Counted from the stretch's first letter, positions 43,467 to 63,068 are shown. The stretch is 64,000 nucleotides of DNA from an uncultured bacterium (GCA_964387845.1 CAYLXA010000004.1:128001-192000), one strand, 5' to 3'. Numbers and translations are program-made. The notes: generated from the sequence alone by a model not told the origin.

Positions 43467-44136
43467 TTAAAACTTTTGGAATCGAGATATCGGCAATTTT
43501 GATTTTTCCGGCATGCGCAGGGCCTTCATTGACATACAAACCCGGCTTGAGGGCTGCCAGCGTAACCGTTGTGTGCGCGCGGATGCATTTTCCCATCACA
43601 TTACCGGTGTCGGCATGAAGGCCGGAAGGTAGATCAATGGATAAGACGCGTTTTTTTGCTTTATTCACAAGATCAACCAACGAAATATAAGGCTCTTCCA
43701 GATTTCTGCTCAACCCCACACCAAAAAGCGCATCAATAATGAGCTTGGAAGATTTTAAGTCTTTCATAAAATTTTTCATCAAATCCGCATCAAATAATTT
43801 GAACGGAATACCCATCGCCGTCATCATTTGATAATTGGCGACCGTATCCGGCTTAAACCGCTCCGGCCTTCCGATGATCCAGATGTTGACCGAAACCCCG
43901 GCATTGGTCAAGTGGCGTGCAGCGGCAAAGCCATCACCGCCATTGTTGCCGGAGCCGCACAAGATCAGCACAGAGCCTTTCTTGCTCATTATTTTTTTCG
44001 CCTCCTCAGCAACGGAACGCCCCGCATTTTCCATTAACAAAAGCGTCGGAATTTTAAATTGCGCGGAGGTTATTTGGTCCAATTTCATGATTGTGCTTGC
44101 CGAAAGCGCAGCCGGCTTGGATTTGCGTTTCATCAA
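43438..44136 (-). CDS. NAD(P)H-hydrate epimerase (YjeF N-terminal domain)
   Basis: A YjeF_N signature (LCGSGNNGGDG). 232 aa, overlapping the lpdA start. Confidence 0.75.
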   Translation of the reverse strand: MMKRKSKPAALSASTIMKLDQITSAQFKIPTLLLMENAGRSVAEEAKKIMSKKGSVLILCGSGNNGGDGFAAARHLTNAGVSVNIWIIGRPERFKPDTVANYQMMTAMGIPFKLFDADLMKNFMKDLKSSKLIIDALFGVGLSRNLEEPYISLVDLVNKAKKRVLSIDLPSGLHADTGNVMGKCIRAHTTVTLAALKPGLYVNEGPAHAGKIKIADISIPKVLIEKALHGKI

Positions 44137-45509
44137 GCAGCCGCAATGAGTTCGCCGATCAAAGTTTTATTCCGGACGGATCTGATTTGGATGTGCTGCC
44201 GTGTGCCGGCCAGCTCTGATGCGCCGTTAAAAACCACGTGGCGCTCGTGCTGGGTCTGGCCAATCATCTGGAGTTCGTCTTTTCGGCTGATGTGACTGAC
44301 CAGTACGCTTTCTCGGGACCCGATCAGCTGCTCGTAATGCTTTTTCGTGATCTCATCCTGAATTGCCAGTAATTCGACATTTCGCTTATTTTTAATATCT
44401 TTCGGCACGTCATCTCTCAATTTATAAGCCGGGGTTCCGGGGCGCGGTGAATATTGAAAAATAAAAGCGCCGTCAAACTCGATTTCACGCACTGCGCGTT
44501 TGGTGGCTTCAAAATCTTCTTCCGTTTCACCGCAAAAGCCGACAATAATGTCGGTTGTGAGTGAAATATCGGGAACAAGTTCGCGAAAGCGGTCGACTTT
44601 GGCTTTAAATTCCGCGTACCGGTGAAGCCGTTTCATTCGTTTTAAAATTGCGTCCGAACCCGATTGCAGGGGAAGGTGAAAGCGTCTAGAAACTTTTTTG
44701 CAGTCGCGGATGGCTTGAAACAGTTCTTCGTGCGCATCTTCCGGATGCGACGTTGTGAATGAAATCAATTCGATTCCTTCAATATCATTCAGCATGCGGA
44801 GAAGTTCGGGAAAAGCCGGACTGTTCGGCAAATCCTTGCCGTATGAATTCACGTTTTGTCCCAGGAGCGTAATTTGTTTATAGCCTTGTTCGGCAAGCCG
44901 GACCGCTTCTCTATAAACCTCCCGAGCTGGCATCGATACTTCAGGCCCGCGCGTTGTTGGGACTATGCAGTAAGTGCAAACTTTGTTGCATCCTGTCATG
45001 ATCGGAAGCCAGGCATTGATTCCATCGCCATATTTGGTGAGCTCCGAATATTCAATCCCCAGACCTTCTTTTTTGATGCGCGCGGTTTGTTGGCGGGTTT
45101 TTCGGACAGTTTCCACGATTTCCGGAAGCTCTTTAATATTCCGAGTTCCGCAGAGAAAATCAAGATGAGGAAATTTTTTAAATAACTTTTCTTTATGTTC
45201 TTCCGCCATGCAGCCCATGAGGCCGACGATCAGATCGGGTTTTTGTTCGGCTTTAAAATCGCGGAGCTCATAGAGATGGCCATAAACGCGGGTTTCCGCA
45301 TGTTCGCGAACCGAGCAGGTATTTAATATGAAGACATCCGAATCTTGATAGGGGTTGGCAGTTTCTTTAATGATCTGAAAGCCGGCATTCTCAAGCGTGC
45401 CCAAGGCGACGTCAGAATCATAAAAGTTCATCTGACATCCGAAGGTCTTAATAAACACGACTGGTTTTTTATCAGTAGATGGCCGTGTTTCTTGCTTTTC
45501 CTGTTCCAA
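44133..45509 (-). CDS. miaB: tRNA-2-methylthio-N6-dimethylallyladenosine synthase
   Basis: An MTTase N-terminal cluster (FGCQMN), a radical-SAM CxxxCxxC (CTYC) and a TRAM domain. It uses an apparent TTG start at 45507-45509 with a strong SD (aaggagg) 5 nt upstream, and that start lies inside the recombinase ORF. Confidence 0.85.
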   Translation of the reverse strand: MEQEKQETRPSTDKKPVVFIKTFGCQMNFYDSDVALGTLENAGFQIIKETANPYQDSDVFILNTCSVREHAETRVYGHLYELRDFKAEQKPDLIVGLMGCMAEEHKEKLFKKFPHLDFLCGTRNIKELPEIVETVRKTRQQTARIKKEGLGIEYSELTKYGDGINAWLPIMTGCNKVCTYCIVPTTRGPEVSMPAREVYREAVRLAEQGYKQITLLGQNVNSYGKDLPNSPAFPELLRMLNDIEGIELISFTTSHPEDAHEELFQAIRDCKKVSRRFHLPLQSGSDAILKRMKRLHRYAEFKAKVDRFRELVPDISLTTDIIVGFCGETEEDFEATKRAVREIEFDGAFIFQYSPRPGTPAYKLRDDVPKDIKNKRNVELLAIQDEITKKHYEQLIGSRESVLVSHISRKDELQMIGQTQHERHVVFNGASELAGTRQHIQIRSVRNKTLIGELIAAA

Positions 45510-47149
45510 GTTTCCTCCTTTCTGCCGGTTTTCTCGTTTGCTCTTCGGTTGGCTAACGCATTTTGATACATGGAGCGAAAAGGTTCATAAAGTTCAAACT
45601 TTTCGATTGATCGATTTTCCACTGGAAGCCTTTTAAAAATGAGCATTAAGAATTCTTTTCGGCTGGCCGGATGTAGATTTTCTTTTACAGATTGCGTAGA
45701 TTTTACGATTTCTTGCGCTTTTTTGACATATTCTTTGGACTTTTCTTTTTCGACTAGCCGGAGTTCCATGCGTTCGACCTTAATGCGAAGTTCACCCTCC
45801 TCATTGCGCAGTTTTTGCATTTTTTGCTTGAAGATGCCGCGATTAATGGTTCCTTCCAAATAAACATCCGTGAGGTCGCTTTGTTTTTGAAGGTATGCTT
45901 GCAAATCTTTTCGCATTGCTTCAAGTTCGTACGTTGCTTCACCAGTCGCTCTATTTCGATATTGGTCTGCTACAAGATTCCGAAGCCGTTCCGTAGTAAC
46001 TTCCTTAGCCGAAAAAAGGACATCCAGAACTTCAAAAACCTGTGATTCCAATATCTCTGACCGCACGTCACCGTTGTGGCATTTGATATTGTAAAGGGCT
46101 CTGCCAGAACAGCGGTAATAAGGTCTCTTTTCGCCGGTTCTGTGATTTTTAACATTGGAAATGCCATTGTAGCGGTTTCCGCACTTGGCGCAGGTGATTA
46201 CACCGGATAGCGGATAGTCGCGGACGCGTCGACGCACAAATCGTCCTTTTCGATTTTGGTCTAAGAGTGCTTGAACTTGATAAAAAATTTCTTCAGAAAC
46301 AATCGCCCAATGATTTCCAGTGGCTTCGATGATTTTGGACGGGTCATTCTTGACATAGCGATAACCATGAAGCGTTTTTTGTTTTCGGTCGTAATGGTGA
46401 GCATTCCAAACTAGTTTTCCAATGTAAATCTTATTTCGAAGCATCTTCCGAACGAGAGAACTATTGAACAAACCGCCTGATCGAGTTTTAATTTCACGTT
46501 TGTAAAGTTCACCGCCAATTTTCTGTGTGGAAAGGCCTGAAAGATACTTCTCGAAGATTTCTTTGACGAGTTTTGCTTCTTCTTCAACGATTTCAAGACG
46601 TTTTGTCGTTTTATCGTAATGGTAACCGTAAGGTGCATAACGGGCGCCTTGCCAATGTCCTTCTTGCACGCCGCGGACCATTCCTGGGAACACGCGTTCA
46701 ATAATCCGGTTTCGCTCAAATTCGGCAAAACTTCCAAGCTGTTGAAGCATGAGTTTGCCGGAGCTTGAGGTAGTATCATAGGGCTCTGTTGCGGATTTAA
46801 ATTCAATATCAAGATTTTCGAGTTCATCCAAGAGGTTCAAAAGGTCTTTCAGACGGCGGCTAAAACGGTCTAGTTTATAAACTAAAACTAAATCAAACTT
46901 CCTTGCTCTCGCGTCTTCCAAAAGTTGATTGAGAGCAGGGCGGTCAAGTGAATAACCGCTATAACCATCGTCTTCGTAAATTTTATTCTTGTCGTCCAGA
47001 AAATGAATTTGCCAATCTTGCTTCTTAGAAAATTCGATAAGAGAATCTCGCTGGATATCCAGAGAATAGCCTTCCCGCGCCTGATCTTCTGTGCTCACGC
47101 GCGTGTAAAGGGCTACTTGGATTTGTTTTTTATCGCTTGAATTGTTCAT
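45428..47149 (-). CDS. large serine recombinase (serine integrase)
   Basis: An N-terminal resolvase catalytic domain (YTRVSTEDQ, with the nucleophile Ser), a recombinase domain, a Cys-rich zinc-ribbon region (CAKCG...YRCSGR...CHN) and a coiled-coil C-terminal region. 573 aa. Confidence 0.9.
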   Translation of the reverse strand: MNNSSDKKQIQVALYTRVSTEDQAREGYSLDIQRDSLIEFSKKQDWQIHFLDDKNKIYEDDGYSGYSLDRPALNQLLEDARARKFDLVLVYKLDRFSRRLKDLLNLLDELENLDIEFKSATEPYDTTSSSGKLMLQQLGSFAEFERNRIIERVFPGMVRGVQEGHWQGARYAPYGYHYDKTTKRLEIVEEEAKLVKEIFEKYLSGLSTQKIGGELYKREIKTRSGGLFNSSLVRKMLRNKIYIGKLVWNAHHYDRKQKTLHGYRYVKNDPSKIIEATGNHWAIVSEEIFYQVQALLDQNRKGRFVRRRVRDYPLSGVITCAKCGNRYNGISNVKNHRTGEKRPYYRCSGRALYNIKCHNGDVRSEILESQVFEVLDVLFSAKEVTTERLRNLVADQYRNRATGEATYELEAMRKDLQAYLQKQSDLTDVYLEGTINRGIFKQKMQKLRNEEGELRIKVERMELRLVEKEKSKEYVKKAQEIVKSTQSVKENLHPASRKEFLMLIFKRLPVENRSIEKFELYEPFRSMYQNALANRRANEKTGRKEETWNRKSKKHGHLLIKNQSCLLRPSDVR

Positions 47150-47425
47150 TTATCTCCGTCTTGAATGAATGGGCAATATTATACATAAAATTATCAGAAT
47201 TACCTGCAATAATTACATGGGTCTTCTTGCGTTTTTGTTATCTTGTTCGATCTCTTTTTGTTTTAATGTTTGTTGCAAACGAGCGCGATCTGCTTGAAGC
47301 AAAATCGTAAAAAATCGGCGCAGCCGGTATTTTTGTTCGTTATCTTCGACGGGTGTTTTGTTTTGAATTTGTATTTGACCTAACTTATTTTTCAGATAGA
47401 GGACCTCCTTTCTGGTTTATTAATT

Positions 47426-48379
47426 TTAATCATTGGAATCGTCATCCCCCTGACCGTCAATTGGGCTCATATTGGCATCGACTTCTTCTTCGCCCCCGCT
47501 GGAATATGGGTCTAGAAAATCGTCGTGATCTTCGTCGGAGTTATGGGGCTTCGGAATCGAAATATACGGCTTGCTCGGTTTCCACTTATTTTTGTCCTTA
47601 GGAACAAAGAAATCCTCAAACCACGCAGGATCAATTTCCTTCAAATCTGTCTTGGTGGATTCTCTAATCAATTGTTTCACGGGAAGCCCGTCTGAACCTG
47701 AAAAGAAAACTGCATCTTTTCTATCCTTCATCAAAGCCTCAAACGTGATGAAGAAAAAACGGTTTGTGGGGTCATGCTTCTTTCTCACTCTTGAAATAAA
47801 CGACTCCGAGCGGCAGATATAAAGCACCGCGTCAAACTTATCGCTGTCATCGTATTGGCTAAAAATACTCTTGTATCTGGCCAGTCTTTTTTCTGTCCGT
47901 TCGTATTCAATGGCATAGAGAGCCTTTTGAGTCATCAAAAACGCATCCGGCACAGAGCCTCTGGGCCTGAATGAGCGGATCACACGTTCTGGAAACCAAG
48001 TCTCAACCCCCAATTCGTAAAAGAGAACCCGGATGTCGGTTAACGCCTTGTCATGCCCAAAATTAGCAAATGCTCTATCCCTTGATATCTTGAGCGCGTA
48101 TTTTGAACCCTGAGACCTGAGCAGTAAAAACGATTTCTGGGTTGGAATATAGATATCCCTTGCTTCGGTGTAGACCTTTTTCTTGGCAATGTATCCCGCT
48201 TTCATCAATTTCAAGATTCTTCTATAACAAGCTCTCTTAGGATTGCAATCTTCAAAGAACACCCTCCCAATCTGATCCAACGTCATAAACTTCATGTGGA
48301 CTAACCACATCAAGAGCTCACTATCTCTCGAATTTAACTGCATGATAAAAATACTCCTTTCTAAAAGAATTACTTTCAC
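47426..48379 (-). CDS. replication-relaxation family protein (plasmid Rep-like)
   Basis: A 317-aa protein with an N-terminal winged-helix-like region and an acidic C-terminal tail. The family assignment is by resemblance, at moderate confidence. It has an apparent GTG start, it is co-oriented with the recombinase, and the repeat-rich non-coding DNA is on its upstream side. Confidence 0.5.
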   Translation of the reverse strand: MKVILLERSIFIMQLNSRDSELLMWLVHMKFMTLDQIGRVFFEDCNPKRACYRRILKLMKAGYIAKKKVYTEARDIYIPTQKSFLLLRSQGSKYALKISRDRAFANFGHDKALTDIRVLFYELGVETWFPERVIRSFRPRGSVPDAFLMTQKALYAIEYERTEKRLARYKSIFSQYDDSDKFDAVLYICRSESFISRVRKKHDPTNRFFFITFEALMKDRKDAVFFSGSDGLPVKQLIRESTKTDLKEIDPAWFEDFFVPKDKNKWKPSKPYISIPKPHNSDEDHDDFLDPYSSGGEEEVDANMSPIDGQGDDDSND

Positions 48380-48399
48380 TGACGAGCACTAGATACAAA

Positions 48400-48472
48400 C
48401 TTTTCCCGACTACTCAATCTCACAAACTCAATCCAAAATAAACCATGGAAGAGAGTGAGTAGTCGGGAAAAG
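48400..48472. repeat. 17-bp perfect inverted repeat (cttttcccgactactca / tgagtagtcgggaaaag) with a 39-bp spacer, just upstream of the rep-relaxation gene
   Basis: Read directly from the sequence. Confidence 0.8.
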
Positions 48473-48584
48473 AAAATGCGCCGAATTGCGAGGCAGTGAA
48501 AGCGCTTACAAAAAATTGCTTAGGGAAACTCAATTTCCCAACCACTTTCCCCAACCAAAAGTGCACCAAAGAACAAAAACACCT

Positions 48585-49030
48585 CTCATTGATGTTGTGC
48601 AAAAACAGGCATTTCGTAACAAAGAAATCCAAAATTCCAGATAAAAAATATTTTTCATGCCCCTTCACCTAAAAAACCAACAAGTCCCCCCATATATAGG
48701 GGGCCAAAAATGGGGGTCTCGCAGAGATTTGCGAAAATATTTTCAATTCCACCTAAAAATAGTTTGAATCCCAACCCTCCGTTCTCAATCACCTAAAACC
48801 CTAAAAGTCCTCCCATTGATGTTGTGCAAAAACAGCACTTTCGACGACAAGAAAATTCAATTAACAGATGGAAAAATATTTTTTATACATTTTTTCTGAG
48901 ACTTTTTAGGTAATCACTTAAAAAAACAACAAGTGCTCCCTATATAAAGGTGCAAAAACAGGGTGTTTTGGTAGAAAATCACGAAAATAGTTTGATCTTC
49001 ACCTAAAATTTTAATTTTAGTCTTTTTTTC
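48585..49030. repeat. two imperfect tandem repeats of about 226 bp containing reiterated cacctaaaa motifs and a 17-bp perfect palindrome (cccccatatataggggg, 48686-48702)
   Basis: The units begin at about 48585 and 48811 (attgatgttgtgcaaaaacag at 48588 and 48814). The cacctaaaa motifs start at about 48666, 48749, 48789 and 48999. Confidence 0.7.
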
Positions 49031-49282
49031 CTGTTTTACATTTGGATCGTAATTTCTCACATAGTGTGTGGCTTAGGCCTATTTCCTCTTGAGTCTTCAC
49101 GATTTTATTGTGAAAGCTCGTGGTTTCGATACCACCAGCTCATACCACCATGTTTAATTTGCTCATTGACCTGGAAAATGATTGAAGATTGAGAGTCGTT
49201 TAACCGCAATCTGGACACCGATCAAGCTTTTGACCTATCACATGGTCAGTCACTTCGGTGCTGGACAGGTTACTAATTTTTT

Positions 49283-49471
49283 TCAACGTTTTTTGCGTTT
49301 CTTTCTCGGCTCTCTCACTGCGGCTGATTCGATCTTCTGAAGGAGATCTTCATTTTCCTGTTCAACTTGTTTCAGCGCCTCACGTAGCCTGAGCATTTCC
49401 TCGATAAGATCATCTTTGGATTCTTCTTGAAGAAAAATTCTATCCCCGTGAAATGGGTTGGCGGCCGTCAT
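49283..49471 (-). CDS. small hypothetical protein (62 aa; coiled-coil with basic C-terminal tail RKKRKKR)
   Basis: An ORF with no convincing SD. Its position at the distal end of the element suggests a small DNA-binding or partition-like protein, but this is weak. Confidence 0.3.
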   Translation of the reverse strand: MTAANPFHGDRIFLQEESKDDLIEEMLRLREALKQVEQENEDLLQKIESAAVREPRKKRKKR

Positions 49472-49573
49472 CGCAGATGTAGGGTCTTAGAAAAAGAATT
49501 AAGATGATTTGTTAGGATTCGCTAAAGGATTGCGTGCGATAAAAACCTGTTGCTTTTTATGATCAGGAGTGTT

Positions 49574-49594
49574 ATATTTCGTATAACGAAATAT
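49574..49594 (+). promoter_or_regulatory. putative MarR operator: 9-bp inverted repeat atatttcgt-ata-acgaaatat followed by ttcgtataat (-10-like) upstream of marR
   Basis: The palindrome overlaps a TATAAT-like box 20-30 nt upstream of the MarR start. Confidence 0.4.
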
Positions 49595-49622
49595 TCGTAT
49601 AATAAAATATATGGGGAGATTT

Positions 49623-50102
49623 ATGAAATTGTTTACCCTGGAAGCTTTTGGAGACCGGATGATTGAGCTGTTCCCGCAGCTGATGCGGGAGATCTCGCAG
49701 TATGAGACTAATTATCTGACCGAAGGAGTGATTACGGTTCCGCAGGTCTGGGTCTTGGATTTTCTGAAAGATGGAAAGTCTGCCCAGATGAACGAACTCG
49801 CCGCGTACATGAAACTTAAGTTTTCGTCCGCGACAGGCCTTGTTGACCGCATGGTCAAGCACCAGCTTGTAAAGCGCGTCCGGAGCGAGACCGACCGGCG
49901 GGTCGTGCTAATATCCATCACTTCCAAAGGTAAGAAAATTTTGCAGGAAATATACAAGCAAAAGCGCAAGGGAATTATGCGATTATTCGGCCGGTTAGGT
50001 TCCGAAGACCGCATGCAGTATATGGAACTTATCGAAAAGCTTGTAAAAGATCTTTCCTCCACCCCTTCTCAGGAAAACCGTTATGCCGACCGTCATCATT
50101 GA
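49623..50102 (+). CDS. MarR family transcriptional regulator
   Basis: A winged-helix MarR fold pattern. The start is at the second ATG (MKLF), which has a ggggaga SD. Confidence 0.8.
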   Translation: MKLFTLEAFGDRMIELFPQLMREISQYETNYLTEGVITVPQVWVLDFLKDGKSAQMNELAAYMKLKFSSATGLVDRMVKHQLVKRVRSETDRRVVLISITSKGKKILQEIYKQKRKGIMRLFGRLGSEDRMQYMELIEKLVKDLSSTPSQENRYADRHH

Positions 50103-50307
50103 AGGCCCCCGATTAAGTTTGGAGGGTAAAAAGGAACTGGTTCAGAAACTGGCCCCGCTCGCGGCTCATGTTTATGACTGGAAAGTTGAAGATGTGGTCG
50201 TGATCATCCGAGAGAATGCGGATGAAAATGTGGCTCGCGGAGGCGTTTTGTTATCGGAGCGGAAAGATCGTGGAATGCAGGCTGTCCATAAAAAGGGGCC
50301 TCAATGA
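50083..50307 (+). CDS. tautomerase superfamily protein (4-oxalocrotonate tautomerase-like, Pro-1)
   Basis: It begins MPTVIIEG and is about 74 aa. It is translationally coupled, overlapping marR by 20 nt and tolC by 4 nt. Confidence 0.6.
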   Translation: MPTVIIEGPRLSLEGKKELVQKLAPLAAHVYDWKVEDVVVIIRENADENVARGGVLLSERKDRGMQAVHKKGPQ

Positions 50308-51740
50308 AAGACTGTCAGAAAAACTATATTGGAGCAGGCTTTTTGAAAGGACAAAAGCGTTTCTTGGGAGCTTTTTTGTGCTTGAGCGTGGCGGGTTTTT
50401 TTATGCACTGTGAAGCGTTTGCCCAAAACGGCTCCTTATCTGCACCGGGCCCCGGGGATTTGAAGGCCGCTCAGAACGTCGATAGTCAAACCCCCTCCTT
50501 GACGCTTGAAGAGTCGTTTCAGCTTGCTTTCAAAAATCATGAAGAGGTTCAAATCGCAATTTTTAGTGAGAAAGAGCAGGGGCTCTTGCCCTGGCGCGCT
50601 TTTTCCGCAATTCTCCCTACCGTGACCGGAAGCGCGGGCGTTACCTATCCAAAAGAGCAAATTGCGTTTGCACAATCTGTTATTGTTGCAGACCCCCTGA
50701 AGGAGGCTGACATTACCGTCAGGCAGCCGTTATTTAACGGACAGACGCTCCCGGCCTACATACGCGCAAGAAACCTTTCGGAAGCCTCATCCGAAAGCAA
50801 ATATTTCGAAATTCGCCGCGTTTTGTTCAATGTGGCACAGGCCTATTTTTCGCTTCTGCAAAATCAAAAGCTGGTTGATGTTGCCGAGGAATCTCTGAGG
50901 CTGGCACAGGAGCAGCTTAGGATTTTGTCTGAACGTTACGAGGCGGGACAAGCACCCAAAAATGATTTTCTGCGCGCCCAGGTTGAAGTGAGCCGTGCCG
51001 AGAGAACTTTAACGGAAAGCCGTAATAACCGGGAACTTGCGGGCAGTACGCTGGCCAGCTTCATTGGTATGCCGGTTCCGGAAATCAAAGAGGCCCGTTT
51101 GGTTGAACCTGAATCTGACCCAACCGTCAGACTCGAAGAAAATGATGAGCTTCAAAAATATATCGAGATTGCCGGAAATCATCGCAATGACCTCAGGAGC
51201 TTAAAAGAACAAGTAGATGCCAAAAAATGGGAAGTCAGGCAGAAATGGGCTGCGTTTCTTCCCAATGCCGACTTGATATTTGAACAATCCTGGCTCGAAC
51301 CCGAAAGTTTTTCGCGGCAGAACAATTTCTGGACAGCCGGATTTCAGTTTACATTTCCTTTTTTTGAAAAAGGAGAGCGAGCGCTAAATGTGAGTGAACA
51401 AAGATACGAACTCAAACAGCTTCGGCTGCGACTCGAAAGGCTTCGAAAAGACATTGCGCTTCAGGTCGAAGAAGCCTGGCGGGCGGCACAGACCACCAAA
51501 GTCAATCTGAACGCGGTTCTCAAAGAAAAAGAGCTTTCCCAGGAAAATTACGATGTGATTCTCAGCCGCTATGAATCCGGACAATCCTCCAGTCTTGATG
51601 TGATCGATGCTTTTGCGGAGCTCACCAATGCAAAAACCATCGCCGTAACGGAACAATATGCTTATCAGCTTTCTCTTCTTAACCTTTTGAAGCAGGCCGG
51701 ACTGTTCGGGCAATCTTATATAGAGCCGCAAAGAAAATGA
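50304..51740 (+). CDS. TolC-family outer membrane efflux protein
   Basis: A signal peptide followed by two OEP repeats. 478 aa. Confidence 0.85.
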   Translation: MKDCQKNYIGAGFLKGQKRFLGAFLCLSVAGFFMHCEAFAQNGSLSAPGPGDLKAAQNVDSQTPSLTLEESFQLAFKNHEEVQIAIFSEKEQGLLPWRAFSAILPTVTGSAGVTYPKEQIAFAQSVIVADPLKEADITVRQPLFNGQTLPAYIRARNLSEASSESKYFEIRRVLFNVAQAYFSLLQNQKLVDVAEESLRLAQEQLRILSERYEAGQAPKNDFLRAQVEVSRAERTLTESRNNRELAGSTLASFIGMPVPEIKEARLVEPESDPTVRLEENDELQKYIEIAGNHRNDLRSLKEQVDAKKWEVRQKWAAFLPNADLIFEQSWLEPESFSRQNNFWTAGFQFTFPFFEKGERALNVSEQRYELKQLRLRLERLRKDIALQVEEAWRAAQTTKVNLNAVLKEKELSQENYDVILSRYESGQSSSLDVIDAFAELTNAKTIAVTEQYAYQLSLLNLLKQAGLFGQSYIEPQRK

Positions 51741-52657
51741 GGAGTCTTTTTGTGAAAAGAAAGTTAAAAAATCAAACAAATGTTTCCATTTTGATTTTTC
51801 CATTGCTATGTTTAGTTTTGGCTTCTGGATGCGGTAAACACAATGGGAAAATGCCGCCAGGCGTGCCTGTCGATGCGATTAAAGTGCAACCGGAAAAGTT
51901 AGAACATATTTTAAAAGTTGTCGGCAATATCAAGGCGCAGGATGAAGCAACTTTGTATTCTAAGGTAGCCGGAAAGCTGATCAAATATGTGGTGAAAGAA
52001 GGGCAGGCGGTAAAAAAAGACGACACCGTAGCTTTGCTCGACCGTGATGAAGTCGGATTCAAATACCAGGAGGCTCCGGTAAAAACGACGCTTGATGGGG
52101 TCGTGGGACGTACTTATTTGGATGCGGGTGCGGATATCCAGTTGAGTACGCCTGTAGCGCTTGTTGTGGATATGCGTCAAGTGCGTATTTTGATACAGGT
52201 GCCCGAACAAGATTTGCCCGATGTGAAGGAAGACCAAACCGCCCATGTTTATGCGGATGCTTTTCCAAAAGATATATTCGAAGGAAAAGTCATTAAAGTG
52301 AGCCCAATTGTGGATCTTCAAACCCGAACAGCGCCCGTTGAAATCGAAGTTCCTAACCCCGAATACCGGTTGAAGCCCGGAATGTTTGCACGTGTTGAAC
52401 TCGTCACGCGAGTTTTCGAGAATGCCGTGATGATTCCTGAGGCGGCCATTGCTTACGAGAGCGGCAAGCCCTCTGTTTTCGTTGTCAAAGACGGTAAAGC
52501 ACAAAGGCGGAGTATTGAGACCGGCATGCGGGAAATTGGAAGAGTTCAAATTACCAAAGGGCTCGAGGGCGGCGAAGTTGTGGTGACAGCCGGCCATCTG
52601 AAGATCCGCGACGGCTCCGAAGTTGCGATCGCTCAGGAACAAACCAACTCTGGGTAA
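51737..52657 (+). CDS. efflux RND transporter periplasmic adaptor subunit
   Basis: A lipobox (LASGCG) and an HlyD/MFP biotinyl-lipoyl plus beta-barrel pattern. Confidence 0.85.
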   Translation: MRSLFVKRKLKNQTNVSILIFPLLCLVLASGCGKHNGKMPPGVPVDAIKVQPEKLEHILKVVGNIKAQDEATLYSKVAGKLIKYVVKEGQAVKKDDTVALLDRDEVGFKYQEAPVKTTLDGVVGRTYLDAGADIQLSTPVALVVDMRQVRILIQVPEQDLPDVKEDQTAHVYADAFPKDIFEGKVIKVSPIVDLQTRTAPVEIEVPNPEYRLKPGMFARVELVTRVFENAVMIPEAAIAYESGKPSVFVVKDGKAQRRSIETGMREIGRVQITKGLEGGEVVVTAGHLKIRDGSEVAIAQEQTNSG

Positions 52658-52707
52658 TTTAAACTTTATTTCTATAGACTACGCCATAGATAAATTAAGG
52701 GAAATAC

Positions 52708-55700
52708 ATGCTATCGAAATTCTTTCTTGACCGGCCGGTTTTTGCGTGGGTGATTGCCATCATTTTGATGGTCTTGGGCTTACTGGCTATTTACCAGCTT
52801 CCGATATCGCAATATCCCCCCATTGCCCCGCCTTCCATTGCCATCACGAGTTTTTATCCGGGCGCTTCAGCCGAAACCGTAGAAAATACCATAACCCAGA
52901 TCATCGAACAAAAAATGACGGGCTTCGAAGAGATGTTGTACATGTCTGCCACAAGCGATTCGGCTGGCGCCTCACGCATAGAACTCACGTTCAAGCCAGG
53001 AACAGATCCGGATTTGGCCTGGGCCAAGGTGCAGAATAAACTCCAGCTGGCTATGGCAAGCCTTCCTGAAGTGGTGCAGCGTTCGGGGGTGACGGTAAGC
53101 AAATCGACGAGGAATTATCTCATCATTATCGGCCTTGTCTCGGAAGATGGCAGTATGGATGACCATGCGCTGCGTGACTATGCTCAATCAAATCTTGAAA
53201 AGGTGCTGGCGCGCGTGCCGGGAGTCGGAGAGGTTGAGACTTTCGGGACCCAGTATGCGATGCGCATCTGGATCAATCCCGATAAGCTGATAGAATACGG
53301 TCTTACGGTTCAAGACGTTGTCCATGCTTTGGATACCTATAACGTAGAAGTGTCGGCCGGTCAGTTCGGCGGACTTCCAGCTGTTGAAGGCCAGCGGCTT
53401 AACGTCTCCATCATTATTCAAAATTTGCTGCAGACCCCCGAGGAATTTGCCTCCATTCCGGTCCGAACCAATCCGGACGGATCGATTATTCGCATCAGGG
53501 ATGTCGGCGGAACTGAACTCGGCACCGAGTTCTACGATATCGTCAATGTATATAACGGCAAACCGGCTGCCGCTATGGCGGTAAGGCAGGCCCCTGGCGC
53601 AAACGCGCTCGATACAGCAGAGGCAGTCAAGGCGAAACTCGAAGAGATGAGCCGCTATTTTCCGCATGGCATGAAGGTGGTTTATCCTTATGACACAACT
53701 CCCTTTGTTGAGGTGGCGATTCATGAGGTTGTCAAAACTCTCTTCGAGGCCATCTTGCTGGTGTTCCTTGTTATGTATCTGTTTATGGGAAATATTCGGG
53801 CAACGTTAATTCCCACGATTGCCGTGCCGGTCGTCCTTTTGGGCACTTTCGCTGTACTGGGACTCTTCGGGTTTTCGATCAACATGCTGACGATGTTCGC
53901 CATGGTCTTGGCAATCGGGCTCCTTGTAGATGATGCGATCGTAGTGGTTGAAAACGTAGAACGCCTGATGTCGGAGGAAGGTCTTTCGCCACGGGATGCC
54001 ACCGCCAAATCAATGGAGCAGATCACAAGCGCTCTGATCGGTATCGGCTTGGTGCTTTCCGCCGTTTTTGGTCCCATGGCTTTTTTCCCGGGTTCAACGG
54101 GAGTCATTTACCGCCAGTTCTCCGTGACGATTATTGCCTCGATGATGCTCTCGGTGGTAGTCGCCTTGATTCTGACACCGGTTCTCTGCGCAGCGCTGCT
54201 GAGACCGGTGCCAAAAGGGCATGAACCGGCAGAAAATGCGATTTGGTTCCTACGTCCCTTTTTTATGAAATTCGACCGCTTTTTCTTCCGGATTCGTGAA
54301 CGCTACATCGCGATTGTAGACCACTCCTTGGCGCATAAACTGCGTTATATCATACTGTACACAGGCATCATAGGCGTGATCGCATTCCTCTTTTTCCGTC
54401 TTCCCACCGGCTATTTACCGGACGAGGACCAGGGAATCCTGCTTGCGCAGATTGTAATGCCGACCGGCTCGACTTTGGAACAAACGAAAGCGGTTACGGA
54501 CAGGGTCCAACAACATTTTGAGCAAAATGAAAAAGATGCCGTGGAATCTTCTATGGCAATAGTGGGTAACGGTTTTTCGGGCAGAGCGCAGAATAACGCG
54601 ATGGTCTTTGTCAAACTCAAGGACTGGAAAGAGCGCGGGCGCAAAGAATTATCGGCAAAGGCCGTGGCGGGAAGAGCAATGGGAGCATTTTCAGCGATTC
54701 GCGAGGCCATTGCTTTTGTTTTTCCTCCGCCTGCCGTCCTTGAACTTGGCTTTGGCCGAGGCTTTGACTTCCAGTTAATCGACAGAGGCGGATTGGGACA
54801 TGAGGCTTTGATGAATGCCCGGAATCAACTGCTCGGCATGGCAGCTCAGGATAAGCGGCTTACGAAAGTGCGCCCGAACGGTATGGAGGATGTCCCTCAA
54901 TTTCGAATCGATGTGGATTGGGAAAAAGCGGGCATGTTGGGAATTCCGATCGCTTCGATCCATAGCACACTCTCGGCAGCTTTTGGCGGGGCCTATGTCA
55001 ATGATTTCATCCAAGGCGGGCGCGTGAAACGCGTGTACATTCAAGCGGATACTCCTTACCGCATGCTGCCGGATGATCTCGAAAAAATTTATGTCCGCAA
55101 CATTTCAGGGCAGATGGTTCCCTTTGCATCTTTTGCATCGACGCGCTGGGCCTCGGGCGCTCCCCGCCTCGAACGCTTTAACGGATTTTCATCCATGAAC
55201 ATCTGGGGAGAGCCTGCGCCAGGCAAAAGTTCCGGTGAGGCGATGCAGGCCATGGAAGAACTTTCCGGAAAACTGCCCAAAGGATTCGGCTATGATTGGG
55301 CAGGTCTGTCGTATCAGGAAAGGATGGCCACGGCTCAGGGACCAATTCTTTACGCGTTCTCCATTCTCGTGATCTTCCTTTGCGTAGCGGCCTTATATGA
55401 GAGTTGGAGTATTCCGTTCGTGAATCTCCTGATGCTGCCGCTCGGAGTATTCGGCGCTTTATTTGCGACTTCCCTGAGAGGCCTGACTAACGACGTTTAC
55501 TTCCAGATTGGTTTCCTTACAACCATGGGACTTTCTACAAAAAACGCCATTCTTATCATTCAGTTCATCAAAGAGCAGATGCAGCAGGGGCTCGGCCTGG
55601 TGGAGGCGACTCTCGCTGCTGTAAAGATCCGCTTCCGTCCGGTTATCATGACATCTCTCGCGTTTTTCTTTGGGACGCTGCCGCTCGCTCTGGCTTCCGG

Positions 55701-55872
55701 GGCAGGCGCGGGCGCGATGAACGCCATCGGCACAGCCGTGACAGGGGGTATGATCTCGGCAACCTTTATTGATCTGGTGTTTATTCCATTATTTTTCGTT
55801 TTGATATCCCGTTTCTTTGGGCGCAAAACAAAAAATACTCAAACTACCGGCGAAGGAACAATTAAGTCGTGA
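52708..55872 (+). CDS. efflux RND transporter permease (AcrB/HAE1 family)
   Basis: A 1054-aa protein with twelve TM segments and two large periplasmic loops, and AcrB family motifs. Confidence 0.9.
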   Translation: MLSKFFLDRPVFAWVIAIILMVLGLLAIYQLPISQYPPIAPPSIAITSFYPGASAETVENTITQIIEQKMTGFEEMLYMSATSDSAGASRIELTFKPGTDPDLAWAKVQNKLQLAMASLPEVVQRSGVTVSKSTRNYLIIIGLVSEDGSMDDHALRDYAQSNLEKVLARVPGVGEVETFGTQYAMRIWINPDKLIEYGLTVQDVVHALDTYNVEVSAGQFGGLPAVEGQRLNVSIIIQNLLQTPEEFASIPVRTNPDGSIIRIRDVGGTELGTEFYDIVNVYNGKPAAAMAVRQAPGANALDTAEAVKAKLEEMSRYFPHGMKVVYPYDTTPFVEVAIHEVVKTLFEAILLVFLVMYLFMGNIRATLIPTIAVPVVLLGTFAVLGLFGFSINMLTMFAMVLAIGLLVDDAIVVVENVERLMSEEGLSPRDATAKSMEQITSALIGIGLVLSAVFGPMAFFPGSTGVIYRQFSVTIIASMMLSVVVALILTPVLCAALLRPVPKGHEPAENAIWFLRPFFMKFDRFFFRIRERYIAIVDHSLAHKLRYIILYTGIIGVIAFLFFRLPTGYLPDEDQGILLAQIVMPTGSTLEQTKAVTDRVQQHFEQNEKDAVESSMAIVGNGFSGRAQNNAMVFVKLKDWKERGRKELSAKAVAGRAMGAFSAIREAIAFVFPPPAVLELGFGRGFDFQLIDRGGLGHEALMNARNQLLGMAAQDKRLTKVRPNGMEDVPQFRIDVDWEKAGMLGIPIASIHSTLSAAFGGAYVNDFIQGGRVKRVYIQADTPYRMLPDDLEKIYVRNISGQMVPFASFASTRWASGAPRLERFNGFSSMNIWGEPAPGKSSGEAMQAMEELSGKLPKGFGYDWAGLSYQERMATAQGPILYAFSILVIFLCVAALYESWSIPFVNLLMLPLGVFGALFATSLRGLTNDVYFQIGFLTTMGLSTKNAILIIQFIKEQMQQGLGLVEATLAAVKIRFRPVIMTSLAFFFGTLPLALASGAGAGAMNAIGTAVTGGMISATFIDLVFIPLFFVLISRFFGRKTKNTQTTGEGTIKS

Positions 55873-56351
55873 AAGCCAGATATGCCAATCAGCATGATTT
55901 TCAAGCCTTTGAAGAAAACCTGACGTTCTTCATGCGTTATTTGTTGGCGCACGGGTTGAAAATACTGGCAAGCTACAAGATCAACCTTGCCCAGTATTTT
56001 ATTCTCTTCGAATTGAGTCATGACACGGCATTGCCCATGTTCTTCTTTGCTGAACATTACCCTCTTTCTAAACCTTCGTTCACAAATAATATCGACAGGC
56101 TTGTTTCACGAGGACTCGTGACACGTATGCGAGGGACCGAGGATAGACGGACGATTTTAGTTTCCATTACGACGAGTGGAAAAAAGCTTATGGGCAACCT
56201 TCAAAGAACGCGGCTCAAATTCTTGCAAAGCTACTTTAATCGTCTGCCCCCGGCCAAGCAGCATGCTTTGACCGAACTTTTAGCGGCTCTCCGGCCGGTT
56301 CATGAAGAATCATGCGCAGGAAAAAGTATTAAAAATATTCTGAAAGAATAA
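55869..56351 (+). CDS. MarR family transcriptional regulator
   Basis: A MarR wHTH pattern. It overlaps the RND gene stop by 4 nt. Confidence 0.75.
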   Translation: MKARYANQHDFQAFEENLTFFMRYLLAHGLKILASYKINLAQYFILFELSHDTALPMFFFAEHYPLSKPSFTNNIDRLVSRGLVTRMRGTEDRRTILVSITTSGKKLMGNLQRTRLKFLQSYFNRLPPAKQHALTELLAALRPVHEESCAGKSIKNILKE

Positions 56352-56356
56352 AACTT

Positions 56357-56587
56357 ATGATTACATGGATCGGTCTTTGCGCTGGAGAAATTTGGAATTG
56401 TTTGGACATGCATGGTGGTAAAGCAGAATTTCATATTCTGTTTTCGGAAATCAATGCGCCACAGGAAACCATTTTGATGGCAATGGGATGGCTTGCCAGA
56501 GAAGGCTACATCATCATTGACGGATCTTTTCCTTCAGGCGTGATCAAACTTAAAGAGCATCCACCCATGCCACTTGCAGAAAAATGA
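56357..56587 (+). CDS. winged helix-turn-helix domain protein (DUF2582-like)
   Basis: A 76-aa protein carrying the MAMGWLAREGYI motif characteristic of DUF2582 wHTH proteins. Confidence 0.55.
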   Translation: MITWIGLCAGEIWNCLDMHGGKAEFHILFSEINAPQETILMAMGWLAREGYIIIDGSFPSGVIKLKEHPPMPLAEK

Positions 56588-56642
56588 TGCCCAATATCAT
56601 GAGAGACTGGCAAATCGTTTGAGGCTGTGAAAGGGGAAGATT

Positions 56643-57032
56643 ATGGGACAAACAAAAAATCAATATATTCCCGGCGTTTGCAATATCGGCACGGCGGAAA
56701 TTAAGAAACGCAAACAAGCGGGATGGATAGGGCTTGCCGCAACTATTGTCCTATGGGGACTCCTTATTTACCTTAATGTTGCACCAGCCTGGCGATTACT
56801 TCTCTTTTTCCCGGCGATGATGTCGGCAATAGGATTTCTCCAGGCCTACATGCATTTCTGCGCCTATTACGGTTTCACTGCTCTTTTTAATTATGGCGAT
56901 TTCGGCAAAAAAGATACTATCCAGCAAGCTGAATTTCGCGTCCAAGATAGACGCAAGGCGTGGCAAATTGTCATTTACTCTGTACTTATCGGTATAGCGG
57001 TCGCTCTTCTGTCATACATGTTTCAGTTATAG
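56643..57032 (+). CDS. hypothetical membrane protein (about three TM segments, two Cys)
   Basis: An SD (aaggggaag) upstream and hydrophobic segments in the sequence. Confidence 0.5.
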   Translation: MGQTKNQYIPGVCNIGTAEIKKRKQAGWIGLAATIVLWGLLIYLNVAPAWRLLLFFPAMMSAIGFLQAYMHFCAYYGFTALFNYGDFGKKDTIQQAEFRVQDRRKAWQIVIYSVLIGIAVALLSYMFQL

Positions 57033-57218
57033 ACCTCTATTGAGCGAAACCAAAAAAAGAGCAAGGAGGGCAGCAACCGCATGAAAATACTCGTTCTTAT
57101 CTTCCGCGCGCTGAAAGAATTTTCTAAAGCGCGGCATAAGGAGGACGAGCAGGTGTCCATCCGGATCTTCGCTGTTCCATGCGAGCAGCTACTCTAAAAT
57201 CAAGGAGGTAAAGAAACC

Positions 57219-57611
57219 ATGCGATACGTAGTGTTATTGGGGAGAATATTCTATTCGTCCATCTTCGTCATGGCCAACCTGTTCCATTTCTCCGGCCAAG
57301 CCATCACGCACGCGGCCGACGAAGGGGTTCCCATGGCGGGGGTCTTGGTTCCCCTGTCGGGGATTATCGGCTTGGCGGGAGGATTCAGCATCCTGCTGGG
57401 CTACAAGGCCAAGTGGGGCGCCTGGCTCCTGGTGCTGTTTCTCGTGCCCGTCACCCTCATGATGCACAAGTTCTGGGCGGTTGCCGACCCGCAGGCCGCC
57501 ATGATGCAACAGGTTATGTTCATGAAGAATGTCTCCATGCTCGGAGCGGCTCTTTTGATCAGCCATTTCGGGGCCGGACCTCTCAGCCTGGACGCCCGCA
57601 AGACAGGTTGA
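57219..57611 (+). CDS. DoxX family membrane protein
   Basis: A DoxX pattern across four TM segments and a strong SD (aaggagg). The gene is conspicuously GC-rich (about 60%) with GC3-rich codons, unlike its neighbours. Confidence 0.75.
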   Translation: MRYVVLLGRIFYSSIFVMANLFHFSGQAITHAADEGVPMAGVLVPLSGIIGLAGGFSILLGYKAKWGAWLLVLFLVPVTLMMHKFWAVADPQAAMMQQVMFMKNVSMLGAALLISHFGAGPLSLDARKTG

Positions 57612-57840
57612 GTTAAAATCCGTAGGCCGCCTTTATTATCTCAACCGCCTGTCGGGTATAGGAAAGCCAAGGGTCAGCCGAACGTCTTAATATGTAGTTT
57701 TAGCGGCTTTGTAGACATGACGGAGATTATACCAAAAGGCGGCCGAGAATAGAAGCCTCTCAACATATTGAAATACAATGACTTAGGAAAAGATTGATTT
57801 TGAGTTTAATCTGTGGTAAATCTGTGTCCCTCGGTGATAT

Positions 57841-62210: not shown

Positions 62211-63068
62211 ATGAAGCGTTTCCCAGGTTGGCTCCGAAAAGAACGGCTTCCCAGTTCGGTTCAATACACATCTCGTATTCTCACCGACGAAAAACTCAAC
62301 ACAGTTTGCGAATCCGCCAAGTGCCCGAATCGCATGGAATGTTTCGGGCGCAAAACAGCAACTTTCATGATTTTGGGCGATGTGTGTACGCGCAAATGCG
62401 GATTTTGTTCCATCGAAGCCGGAAAGCCCGTTGATTTTGATGCGCATGAACCGGAGCGGGTTGCGCGCGCGGCGTTCGAATTAGGATTAAAGCACGTGGT
62501 TGTGACATCGGTGGCTCGCGATGATTTGCAAGACGGCGGCGCGCAAAGATTTGCCGATACAATTCGCGCGATTCGAAATTTATTGCCGGAATCGACGATC
62601 GAAGTACTGACGCCTGATTTTAAATTGAATTTTGAATCGATCGACACAGTTTGTAACGCGGGGCCGGATATTTACAATCACAACATCGAAACAGTTGAGC
62701 GGCTCACGCCCGAAGTCAGGTCGCCGCTTGCGAAATACGCAAGGTCGCTTTCGCTTTTGAAATATGTGAAAACCAATTTCCCGCACATCATTACAAAAAG
62801 CGGCATGATGCTGGGTTTGGGCGAAACCAAAGAAGAAGTGATTCAAGCGCTTCGGGATTTGCGCGAGCATCAATGTGATGTGCTAACGATGGGCCAATAT
62901 TTGCAGCCCACGAAAGAAAAATTGGAAGTAAGTGAATTTATTCCGCCGTTTATTTTTGAATTCTATGAACAGCAGGCGCGCGAATTTGGGTTTCGCGAAG
63001 CTTATTGCGGGCCGTTTGTCCGGAGTTCTTACAATGCAGGGGAATTGAGCGAGAAGGTGTTAAATTAA
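62211..63068 (+). CDS. lipA: lipoyl synthase
   Basis: An auxiliary cluster CxxxxCxxxxxC (CPNRMECFGRKTATFMILGDVCTRKC) and radical-SAM CGFC motif. Confidence 0.9.
   Translation: MKRFPGWLRKERLPSSVQYTSRILTDEKLNTVCESAKCPNRMECFGRKTATFMILGDVCTRKCGFCSIEAGKPVDFDAHEPERVARAAFELGLKHVVVTSVARDDLQDGGAQRFADTIRAIRNLLPESTIEVLTPDFKLNFESIDTVCNAGPDIYNHNIETVERLTPEVRSPLAKYARSLSLLKYVKTNFPHIITKSGMMLGLGETKEEVIQALRDLREHQCDVLTMGQYLQPTKEKLEVSEFIPPFIFEFYEQQAREFGFREAYCGPFVRSSYNAGELSEKVLN

Follow-up and report, generated by a model that had tools for sequence, protein, structure and literature searches.

Which part of this genome is mobile, and by what means, is the question raised by a locus of an uncultured bacterium (GCA_964387845.1 CAYLXA010000004.1:128001-192000; this whole stretch of 64,000 nucleotides is termed the window) in which a large serine integrase gene, a gene annotated as encoding a replication-relaxation protein (termed Rep-like) and AT-rich, repeat-rich DNA adjoin miaB, a tRNA-modification gene. 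An earlier reading made from the sequence alone (the original prediction) had proposed a compact element of ~4.2 kb at 45428-49600 and, as an alternative, an element running to ~57.65 kb whose removal would restore a divergent miaB/cmoA pair. The alternative proved correct, with the far junction at 57,675-57,676. We conclude with good confidence that window positions 45,438-57,676 form one 12,239-bp integrative element in an Omnitrophota-type host, most likely an integrative mobilizable element (IME) with RND-efflux cargo. The best MiaB relatives of this host are found in Omnitrophota metagenome-assembled genomes (MAGs; ~55% identity), consistent with an Omnitrophota-like organism.

Boundaries, attachment sites and repair of miaB

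In order to include its Phe-Gly-Cys-Gln-Met-Asn (FGCQMN) motif, the MiaB protein of the window needs the upstream TTG at 45509, so that the 3' end of the integrase gene overlaps miaB by 82 nt, an overlap that the original prediction had not noticed. A mobile element with a large serine integrase is thus integrated at miaB as proposed, but it lies inside the miaB coding sequence rather than beside the gene. When the window was compared with a related locus (L004), the sequence just 5' of the motif was nearly identical and diverged after ATGAAC, which suggested that the codons before the motif belong to the element. The FGCQMN-coding motif is present in full as a single copy in the window, and because the remnant of miaB at the other junction stops at the Gly codon, a protein-level search was needed to locate the far end. 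Using native MiaB N-termini, this search retrieved KPLKLHIKTFG followed by a stop, on the minus strand near 57.7 kb, where the DNA reads TGgTATAAT, 7 nt, and ATG TCT ACA AAG CCG CTA AAA CTA CAT ATT AAG ACG TTC GGC TGA. This remnant, missed in the original prediction, lies at 57677-57718, is divergent from cmoA (57841, plus strand) and resembles native MiaB N-termini at empty sites, e.g. MNKQDKPLKVTIKTFG in L009. The genes upstream of miaB are not conserved in relatives, and attB was therefore defined from the remnant instead of from synteny. The features at the two junctions are as follows.

44133-45437, minus strand: part of miaB derived from the host, starting at the Cys codon of FGCQMN (TIGR01574 MiaB, 449.7 bits)
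45436-45437, minus strand: attR crossover dinucleotide TG, within the Cys codon of MiaB FGCQMN (attR region ~45412-45462)
45438-45519, minus strand: element-encoded replacement miaB 5' end, with AGGAGG at 45519-45514, TTG at 45509 and 24 codons, MEQEKQETRPSTDKKPVVFIKTFG
45428-47149, minus strand: large serine integrase, 573 aa when integrated (PF00239, PF07508, PF13408), with its stop TGA (45430-45428) within the ATG-AAC of miaB
57613-57675, minus strand: P' arm of the attachment site, encoding a 20-aa C-terminal tail (DPWLSYTRQAVEIIKAAYGF, then stop) that the integrase would regain once excised
57675-57676, minus strand: attL crossover dinucleotide TG, exactly where 100% identity switches to divergence in L223 and L224
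57677-57734, minus strand: displaced original miaB 5' end, with TGgTATAAT at 57734-57726, ATG at 57718 and 14 codons, MSTKPLKLHIKTFG, then a stop

The two junctions share a 17-nt core, ATTAAGACNTTCGGNTG, which occurs exactly twice within the 64-kb window (0.01 expected by chance), at 45436-45452 and 57675-57691, both copies on the minus strand and 12,239 bp apart. The attR copy reads ATTAAGACCTTCGGATG and the attL copy ATTAAGACGTTCGGCTG, their common sequence being limited to the core. Joining the left half of the far site to the right half of the near site yields MSTKPLKLHIKTFGCQMNFYDSD, in agreement with the empty-site MiaB start MNKQDKPLKVTIKTFGCQMNVYD of L009. The attP junction would read GTGTTTATTAAGACCTTCGGATGACCCTTGGCTTTCCTATACC and the empty attB of the window's host CATATTAAGACGTTCGGCTGTCAGATGAACTTTTATGA, and the empty attB of a second host described below would begin ...CATATCCGCACTTTTGGTTGTCAGATGAAC. 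The best dyad centre of the reconstructed window attP is the TG after GGN (14/25 positions). The system therefore shows short, dissimilar attP and attB sites with a 2-bp central exchange and hybrid attL and attR sites, with no long direct repeats, and no att-like remnants were found inside the element, including at the border between the AT-rich DNA and the cargo.

The element supplies a ribosome-binding site, the TTG and 24 codons, so MiaB stays complete after the split. These replacement codons are nested within the 3' end of the integrase gene in another reading frame, and the same design is found in three related loci (L003, L004, and L005). At the far end, the displaced miaB ATG (57716-57734 region) stands 7 nt past the extended -10 sequence TGgTATAAT, a distance suggesting that the native miaB transcript may be leaderless. 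Promoter and terminator scans gave no more matches in the real sequence than in shuffled sequence. As regards the surroundings of miaB, relatives hold miaB, yjeF_N, (lpd), and a radical-SAM gene in colinear order. The radical-SAM gene of the window (62211-63068, plus strand) lies on the opposite side, so that the block lpd...miaB...cmoA...M16 peptidase appears inverted relative to these genomes (window 42075-63068).

Contigs from a different study (SRR18669184-6) matched the element perfectly in the following parts.

L002: element part 45438-48620, 100.000% over 3183 nt; host flank 80.5% (miaB, 558 nt)
L223: element part 56699-57676, 100%; host flank 77.8% (cmoA and the next gene, 1690 nt)
L224: element part 56463-57676, 100%; host flank 79.2%
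L229: element part 55808-57266, 100%; contig without flank
L231: element part 49223-50530, 100%; contig without flank

Together these five contigs show 100.000% identity over ~7.0 kb, as opposed to 77.8-80.5% in the host flanks. Exact proteins of the window's host flanks were detected only in SRR15237813 and one NCBI contig. The window's host being undetected in SRR18669184-6, the identical fragments are most likely those of a second host. At attL, identity gives way to divergence exactly at the TG, the host side reading GGC in the window versus GGT in the second host, and the displaced miaB starts differ accordingly (MSTKPLKLHIKTFG versus MGKTPLKLHIRTFG). At attR, identity extends past the TG into miaB codons that are conserved, and the hosts begin to differ 15 nt later. 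Taken together, the two breaks locate the exchange at the TG dinucleotide, in agreement with a serine integrase. The comparison thus shows what, judged by these identities, is a very recent movement of the element between two host species. Since L231 spans the border of the supposed compact element at 100% identity, the 12.2-kb unit moved as one, and there is no boundary near 49.6 kb.

The comparison with relatives that had been proposed for finding an empty site was successful in part: four MAGs (L006-L009) carry empty sites, whereas in the species of the window, a search via the exact flanking proteins (YjeF_N, CmoA) retrieved occupied contigs only. The exact attP sequence gave no match when searched in viral contigs. 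A discrete unit bounded by att sites, empty in relatives and horizontally transferred, corresponds to an IME or genomic island.

The integrase family and its C-terminal tail

The predicted 573-aa large serine recombinase was recovered as such, with Resolvase (PF00239, E = 6.7e-39), Recombinase (PF07508, E = 9.5e-23), and Zn_ribbon_recom (PF13408, E = 4.4e-13) domains. Its catalytic Ser (S19, in YTRVSTEDQ) and its DRFSRR motif are both invariant in the integrase alignment, and the combination of a catalytic domain bearing this Ser with a Recombinase domain and zinc ribbon in a long C-terminal region is that of large serine recombinases. It matches the PHROG 95 integrase with E = 1e-121, and its best NCBIfam matches are CcrB/CcrC, at 220 bits versus an equivalog cut-off of 900 bits.

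A metagenome scan with the integrase alignment retrieved 80 loci with 41-72% identity. The integrase stop is the TGA of the miaB ATGAAY, at a fixed offset of -12, in 48/48 integrated loci with the FGCQMN motif (the window, L003-L005, and 44 metagenome loci); in a further locus outside this count (L147), the integrase gene abuts a miaB with a variant motif. L003-L005 are Omnitrophota MAGs whose MiaB is 54-55% identical to that of the window and whose homologous integrases (38-65% identity) show exactly the same overlap, while L006-L009, with equally related MiaB, have a native miaB start and no integrase. Identities of integrase and MiaB are uncoupled (45/55% in L003, 65/54% in L004), which argues against simple vertical inheritance. 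DNA coding for FGCQMN is found at the miaB start in nearly all related loci examined.

In 10-12 loci, the integrase gene is followed by ...TTCGGNTG and a conserved (G/A)CCNNTGG arm, with no miaB. Judging from their sequence, these sites are intact attP of free or excised forms; their contigs showed no terminal overlaps indicative of circularity. In these free forms, the integrase reading frame continues through the att site for 20-45 extra codons, and a TGG (Trp) stands at +6..+8 in 13/15 sequences (12 free forms, L167, and the sites reconstructed for the window and L158). The L084 tail shares its AYGF ending with the window tail, apart from a synonymous difference. The integrated window enzyme ends in ...RPSDVR; the excised form would end in ...RPSDDPWLSYTRQAVEIIKAAYGF, with PSDDPWLSYTRQAVEIIKAAYGF as its C-terminus.

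Directly upstream of the integrase gene lies a small open reading frame (ORF) that the original prediction had missed.

47216-47395, minus strand: conserved small ORF of 59 aa that putatively starts at a CTG 8 nt past AAGGAGG

This ORF recurs upstream of the integrase gene in at least 10 relatives, whether or not the Rep-like gene is present, and its motif YRLRxFxxILLxADxxRL was detected by tblastn in L004, L084, L085, L087-L089, and L091-L093. It matched no Pfam family; in some other relatives, a MerR/HTH_17-like small gene occupies its position. It is the sole candidate for an integrase partner or directionality factor. We tentatively suggest, although we consider it rather unlikely, that attP in the last integrase codons acts as a built-in sensor of the integration state, the tail swap, with or without the 59-aa ORF, setting the direction or level of recombination. 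If this were true, the free element would make a full-length integrase with a conserved Trp-containing tail and the integrated one a tail-less enzyme ending in host Met-Asn codons, and translation of an essential-type tRNA-modification enzyme would be coupled to integrase transcription. It would represent a new way of controlling direction in large serine recombinases, in an enzyme family aimed at a nearly universal bacterial coding motif.

Several relatives deserve mention in their own right. L158 (1-11700) is a tandem array of segments at miaB, with three attL-like miaB-start remnants (GG at 107, 2008, and 6014) upstream of a single integrase gene; its innermost segment is a 5.66-kb unit with integrase and Rep-like genes, and the outer segments hold Fic/DUF4172 and NmrA genes and no integrase. 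An in-frame TAA (L158:10256-10258, also in the overlapping contig L144) replaces the conserved Leu of YKLDRFSRR, so this copy is probably inactive. Among the other integrated relatives, far ends were found only in L158 (the same site in L144), probably because the 10-kb flank is too short in most loci. In L112 (9481-18696), an integrase with an intact attP-type site lies 6.3 kb from an intact miaB with a native-looking start, with a gene for an Ig-domain protein of 1865 aa between them; a chimeric assembly or a secondary site could account for this arrangement. Three closely related elements (L004, L084, and L129) share genes for a GreA-like protein, a universal stress protein, and an Na+/H+ exchanger. 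The presence of these housekeeping-looking genes in L084 and L129, both free attP forms, shows that they are carried along by the element. Finally, L167, a 17.3-kb IMG/VR contig, is a podovirus-like fragment that encodes a T7_gp14-like internal virion protein together with an integrase of the same family and an attP of the same type, so that different kinds of elements, including phages, use this miaB-targeting family.

Mobilization or replication, and the cargo

The remainder of the element comprises the following features.

47426-48343, minus strand: MOB_C-like protein, 305 aa, annotated as replication-relaxation, with an N-terminal MarR-like winged helix and a PD-(D/E)XK nuclease domain
48373-48502, no strand assigned: compound inverted repeat of ~130 bp, with outer stem 48373-48388/48487-48502 and inner 22-bp stem 48400-48421/48451-48472
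48569-48959, minus strand: four ~38-nt direct repeats, units 48922-48959, 48796-48833, 48673-48710, and 48569-48606, spaced 126/122/105 nt
49283-49471, minus strand: charged ORF, 62 aa, called as a gene in public assemblies
49578-49610: tandem 16-mer TTCGTATAACGAAATA / TTCGTATAATAAAATA, directly upstream of the first cargo MarR gene
49611-50102, plus strand: MarR (Pfam)
50083-50307, plus strand: tautomerase (Pfam)
50304-51740, plus strand: outer-membrane factor (Pfam)
51737-52657, plus strand: membrane-fusion protein (Pfam)
52708-55872, plus strand: AcrB-type RND pump (Pfam)
55869-56351, plus strand: second MarR (Pfam)
56357-56587, plus strand: DUF2582 (Pfam)
56643-57032, plus strand: membrane ORF
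57219-57611, plus strand: DoxX (Pfam)

The Rep-like ORF is co-oriented with the integrase gene on the minus strand, as predicted. The ORF at 47426-48379 encodes 317 aa, whereas gene callers and the alignment of relatives favour the ATG at 48343 behind AAGGAG, which is probably the start. The family of this protein has been placed in the PD-(D/E)XK superfamily, under a name that covers plasmid replication (PF13814; PMC3424549), and the same Pfam family represents the MOB_C relaxase class (MobC) in CONJscan (PMC5357655). The MOB_C prototype, TraX of pAD1, combines an N-terminal winged helix with a PD-(D/E)XK domain and has its binding site in 5 direct repeats that lie 70-120 bp from nic (PMC12857230). 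In the Rep-like alignment, the P-D, E-x-E, and K residues are invariant, and in the predicted model the order of secondary structures fits the alpha-beta-beta-beta-alpha-beta core of PD-(D/E)XK enzymes, preceded by an N-terminal winged helix. Only two of 72,556 plasmids encode homologues; both are typed MOBC, and in both the homologue is followed by a coupling protein (T4CP) gene. No match was found in 50,697 phage records.

Upstream of this gene, the non-coding stretch (48344-49282, ~0.94 kb, GC 0.36-0.41) confirms the ~0.9 kb of repeat-rich DNA that had been described, and GC is indeed low across 47.0-49.5 kb (0.36-0.44 versus 0.45-0.54 in the flanks). The hairpin reported there is real: the inner hairpin (48400-48472) has a DNA fold z-score of -5.9, and the compound structure is kept in L088, L112, L136, L158 (and the overlapping L144), L159, and L166. 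In an alignment of six sequences (the window, L088, L112, L136, L158, and L159), 93% of cells are paired, compensatory changes occur at 8 pairs, and the observed values are reached by 0/500 shuffles; a C.T mismatch is common to 6/6 sequences. The two ~226-bp tandem repeats of the original prediction correspond to a 227-nt offset at ~70-78% identity, but TRF does not call them and four ~38-nt units describe the region better; every copy of CACCTAAAA and GTGCAAAAACAG within the window falls in this four-unit array. The 17-bp perfect palindrome is absent, the longest perfect ones being 12 bp (AAAAATATTTTT twice and GAAAATATTTTC) and CCCCCATATATAGGGGG being imperfect. The small ORF noted beyond the repeats exists as the 62-aa ORF, which has no family match and cannot be aligned with the small ORF that L166 has in this place. 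An 82-aa ORF upstream of the Rep-like gene (48420-48668) was judged spurious, as were its counterparts in relatives, because of their overlap with the conserved hairpin DNA.

A module of the same make-up occurs in L166 (9300-12983). The serine integrase beside it is a different one, with its 3' end against the apparent 3' end of a tRNA gene. The same four-unit array is present (first unit 36/38 identical, Rep-like protein 60% identical), and its association with a different integrase indicates that the repeats belong with the Rep-like gene and not with the integrase. The cargo of L166 consists of copper-resistance genes, and the backbone is modular.

On this comparative evidence, the Rep-like gene with its hairpin and repeats is more likely a mobilization than a replication module. 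We read the hairpin and repeats as a candidate origin of transfer (oriT), with binding repeats and a nic hairpin, in which the four 38-nt units are candidate binding sites for the winged helix, a layout in agreement with that described for TraX (PMC12857230). Several observations weigh against this reading. The Replic_Relax match (PF13814) of 24.3 bits is just below the 25.3-bit cut-off, which makes the predicted family assignment weaker than stated, and NCBIfam MobC_subf, at E = 8e-11, reaches 41.7 bits versus a 200-bit cut-off. A fold search gave no nuclease match, winged-helix matches dominating, and a profile search of solved structures returned a MarR protein only. Coupling protein and type IV secretion system (T4SS) genes are absent from all family elements examined (the window, L158, L088, L137, and L166). 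As PF13814 is nevertheless listed for the 305-aa form in precomputed Pfam annotation and hhalign against a MOBC-typed protein gave a probability of 95%, the sub-threshold scores are best explained by a protein that is homologous to MOB_C but a distant member. For the element as a whole, the second host yielded no sequence of its middle part (48.6-49.2 and 50.5-55.8 kb), and neither an excised circle nor an empty site of exactly this element was found by the exact attP sequence in viral contigs or by the exact flanking proteins.

A replicative role, as the original prediction had it, is possible though less likely than mobilization, and is suggested by a weak match to PHROG 2190 (replication initiation protein) and by the Toprim protein that neighbours the Rep-like gene in some relatives (L137 and L142). 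Both observations, which also count against the mobilization module, would fit an integrative plasmid with the same boundaries, in which the Rep-like protein is an initiator, the repeats and AT-rich DNA are an iteron origin, and replication occurs instead of or besides mobilization. We regard this as possible yet doubtful: the Pfam family name, the direct repeats in AT-rich DNA, and the fairly common free attP forms in metagenomes agree with it, but the nearest typed relatives are MOBC and stand beside coupling proteins, the repeats, 105-126 nt apart, do not resemble classic 20-bp iteron arrays, no free-form contig showed circularity, and phage or plasmid matches are limited to the two MOBC plasmids. 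It is quite improbable that only the ~4.2-kb unit at 45428-49600 is mobile, the RND region being a separate older island or host DNA and the whole a composite or accreted array. A GC step from 0.36-0.42 to ~0.49 near 49.5 kb, the tandem accretion at miaB in L158 with its innermost 5.66-kb unit, and the exchange of the Rep-like module between integrases (L166) would suit such a history; against it stand the lack of an internal att-like remnant, the only second core at 57,675, and the identical contigs covering 49223-50530 and 55808-57266 from samples in which the window's host was not detected.

That the element is a defective prophage or phage satellite with the same integrase family appears very unlikely. 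L167 shows that a contig with a T7_gp14-like virion protein can carry this integrase family and attP, but no capsid, terminase, tail, virion, packaging, or lysis genes were found among the ORFs of the element, and the Rep-like protein is unmatched in the phage records. Hardly credible, finally, is a fixed or domesticated integrase whose pairing with miaB reflects vertical synteny and a host function such as driving miaB expression. Integrase genes do abut miaB in many distant genomes, miaB translation signals do lie inside the integrase gene, and no empty site was seen in this species; yet the step at the att core from 100% identity in the element to 78-80% in the flanks of the second host contradicts this explanation, as do the existence of free attP forms, the patchy presence and absence among equally related MiaB loci, and the integrase identity that does not track MiaB identity.

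For the favoured IME, we propose that the integrase recombines attP, in the last codons of its own gene, with attB, in the first ~25 codons of miaB, the exchange occurring at the TG of the Cys codon. Integration has moved the miaB promoter and its 14-codon start by 12 kb to the neighbourhood of cmoA, and the codons and translation signals provided by the element keep MiaB complete; it has also shortened the integrase, and excision would restore the tail. The sequence comparisons establish the boundaries, the core, the repair of the target, the tail swap, the site specificity across the family and the recent transfer between species, whereas relaxase activity, the oriT role, dependence on a helper, the functions of the tail and the small ORF, and the mode of miaB transcription are inferred. 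The backbone consists of the integrase gene, the 59-aa ORF, the MOB_C-type winged-helix and PD-(D/E)XK protein, the compound hairpin, and the four repeats. Because the element has no coupling protein or secretion genes, its transfer would need a helper, presumably a conjugation system. The cargo (49578-57611, plus strand), parts of which recur at 100% identity in SRR18669186, is a MarR-controlled RND efflux pump with small accessory genes, and the tandem 16-mer upstream of the first MarR gene is likely an operator.

Comparison with known systems

This work fully delimits a mobile element that has been active over evolutionary time and that carries an RND efflux pump between species, in a phylum for which metagenomes are almost the only source. 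It defines a large family of serine integrases whose attP/attB pair is readable and whose crossover dinucleotide is known; such pairs are raw material for genome-engineering integrases. The design is unusual, in that the 5' end of the split gene is rebuilt from within the element's own integrase gene and the integrase C-terminus changes on integration. It also calls for caution, as conserved synteny of an integrase gene across distant genomes can mean site-specific targeting and not vertical inheritance. Our literature search retrieved no description of this integrase family or of Omnitrophota integrative elements.

Streptococcal IMEs with a serine integrase and a MOB_C (PF13814) relaxase were catalogued by Coluzzi et al. 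2017 (PMC5357655). The element resembles them in its site-specific integrase, single relaxase-type gene, presumed oriT, lack of a secretion apparatus, variable adaptive cargo, and target in a protein-coding gene; it differs in its Omnitrophota host, its target in the 5' codons of miaB, the absence of a coupling protein, the location of attP within the integrase ORF, and a relaxase candidate that is a distant member under curated cut-offs. Another large family, the dusA-specific integrase islands (Farrugia et al. 2015, PMC4482086), whose varied cargo includes prophages, likewise uses a single site in the 5' end of a tRNA-modification gene, supplies a replacement, and leaves a remnant 5' end at the far junction. 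However, these islands rely on DusA-associated tyrosine integrases and longer identical cores, whereas the window has a large serine recombinase, a 2-bp crossover, and replacement codons overlapping the integrase gene, so the resemblance is one of strategy only.

With TraX and oriT2 of pAD1 (PMC12857230), the Rep-like protein shares the N-terminal winged helix and PD-(D/E)XK domain, and its array the several direct repeats apart from a (candidate) nic region; pAD1 is a conjugative plasmid with its own T4SS, whereas the candidate binding repeats of the window are 38 nt long and ~105-126 nt apart. The integrase has the three-domain architecture and catalytic Ser of CcrB/CcrC of the staphylococcal cassette chromosome (SCC) and of phage large serine integrases (PHROG 95), and like them inserts at one end of a conserved housekeeping gene without inactivating it. 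Unlike SCC, which targets the rlmH 3' end, the element has a single recombinase, and its scores are far under the Ccr cut-offs. An attP inside a coding sequence is also a feature of SSV1-type archaeal tyrosine integrases, where integration splits the integrase gene in two, and of integration-dependent immunity in mycobacteriophages, where the repressor is truncated. The window element is like both in having attP in an element coding sequence, and unlike both in that integration replaces just the final 20-45 residues of a serine integrase by two others.

In summary, the element belongs to known kinds, combining a serine-integrase island or IME with the 5'-end-replacing strategy of the dusA islands (PMC4482086). 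What is new is the target, FGCQMN in miaB, together with how large and consistent the family is, the placement of the replacement codons within the integrase gene, an integrase C-terminus that depends on integration, and the Omnitrophota setting.

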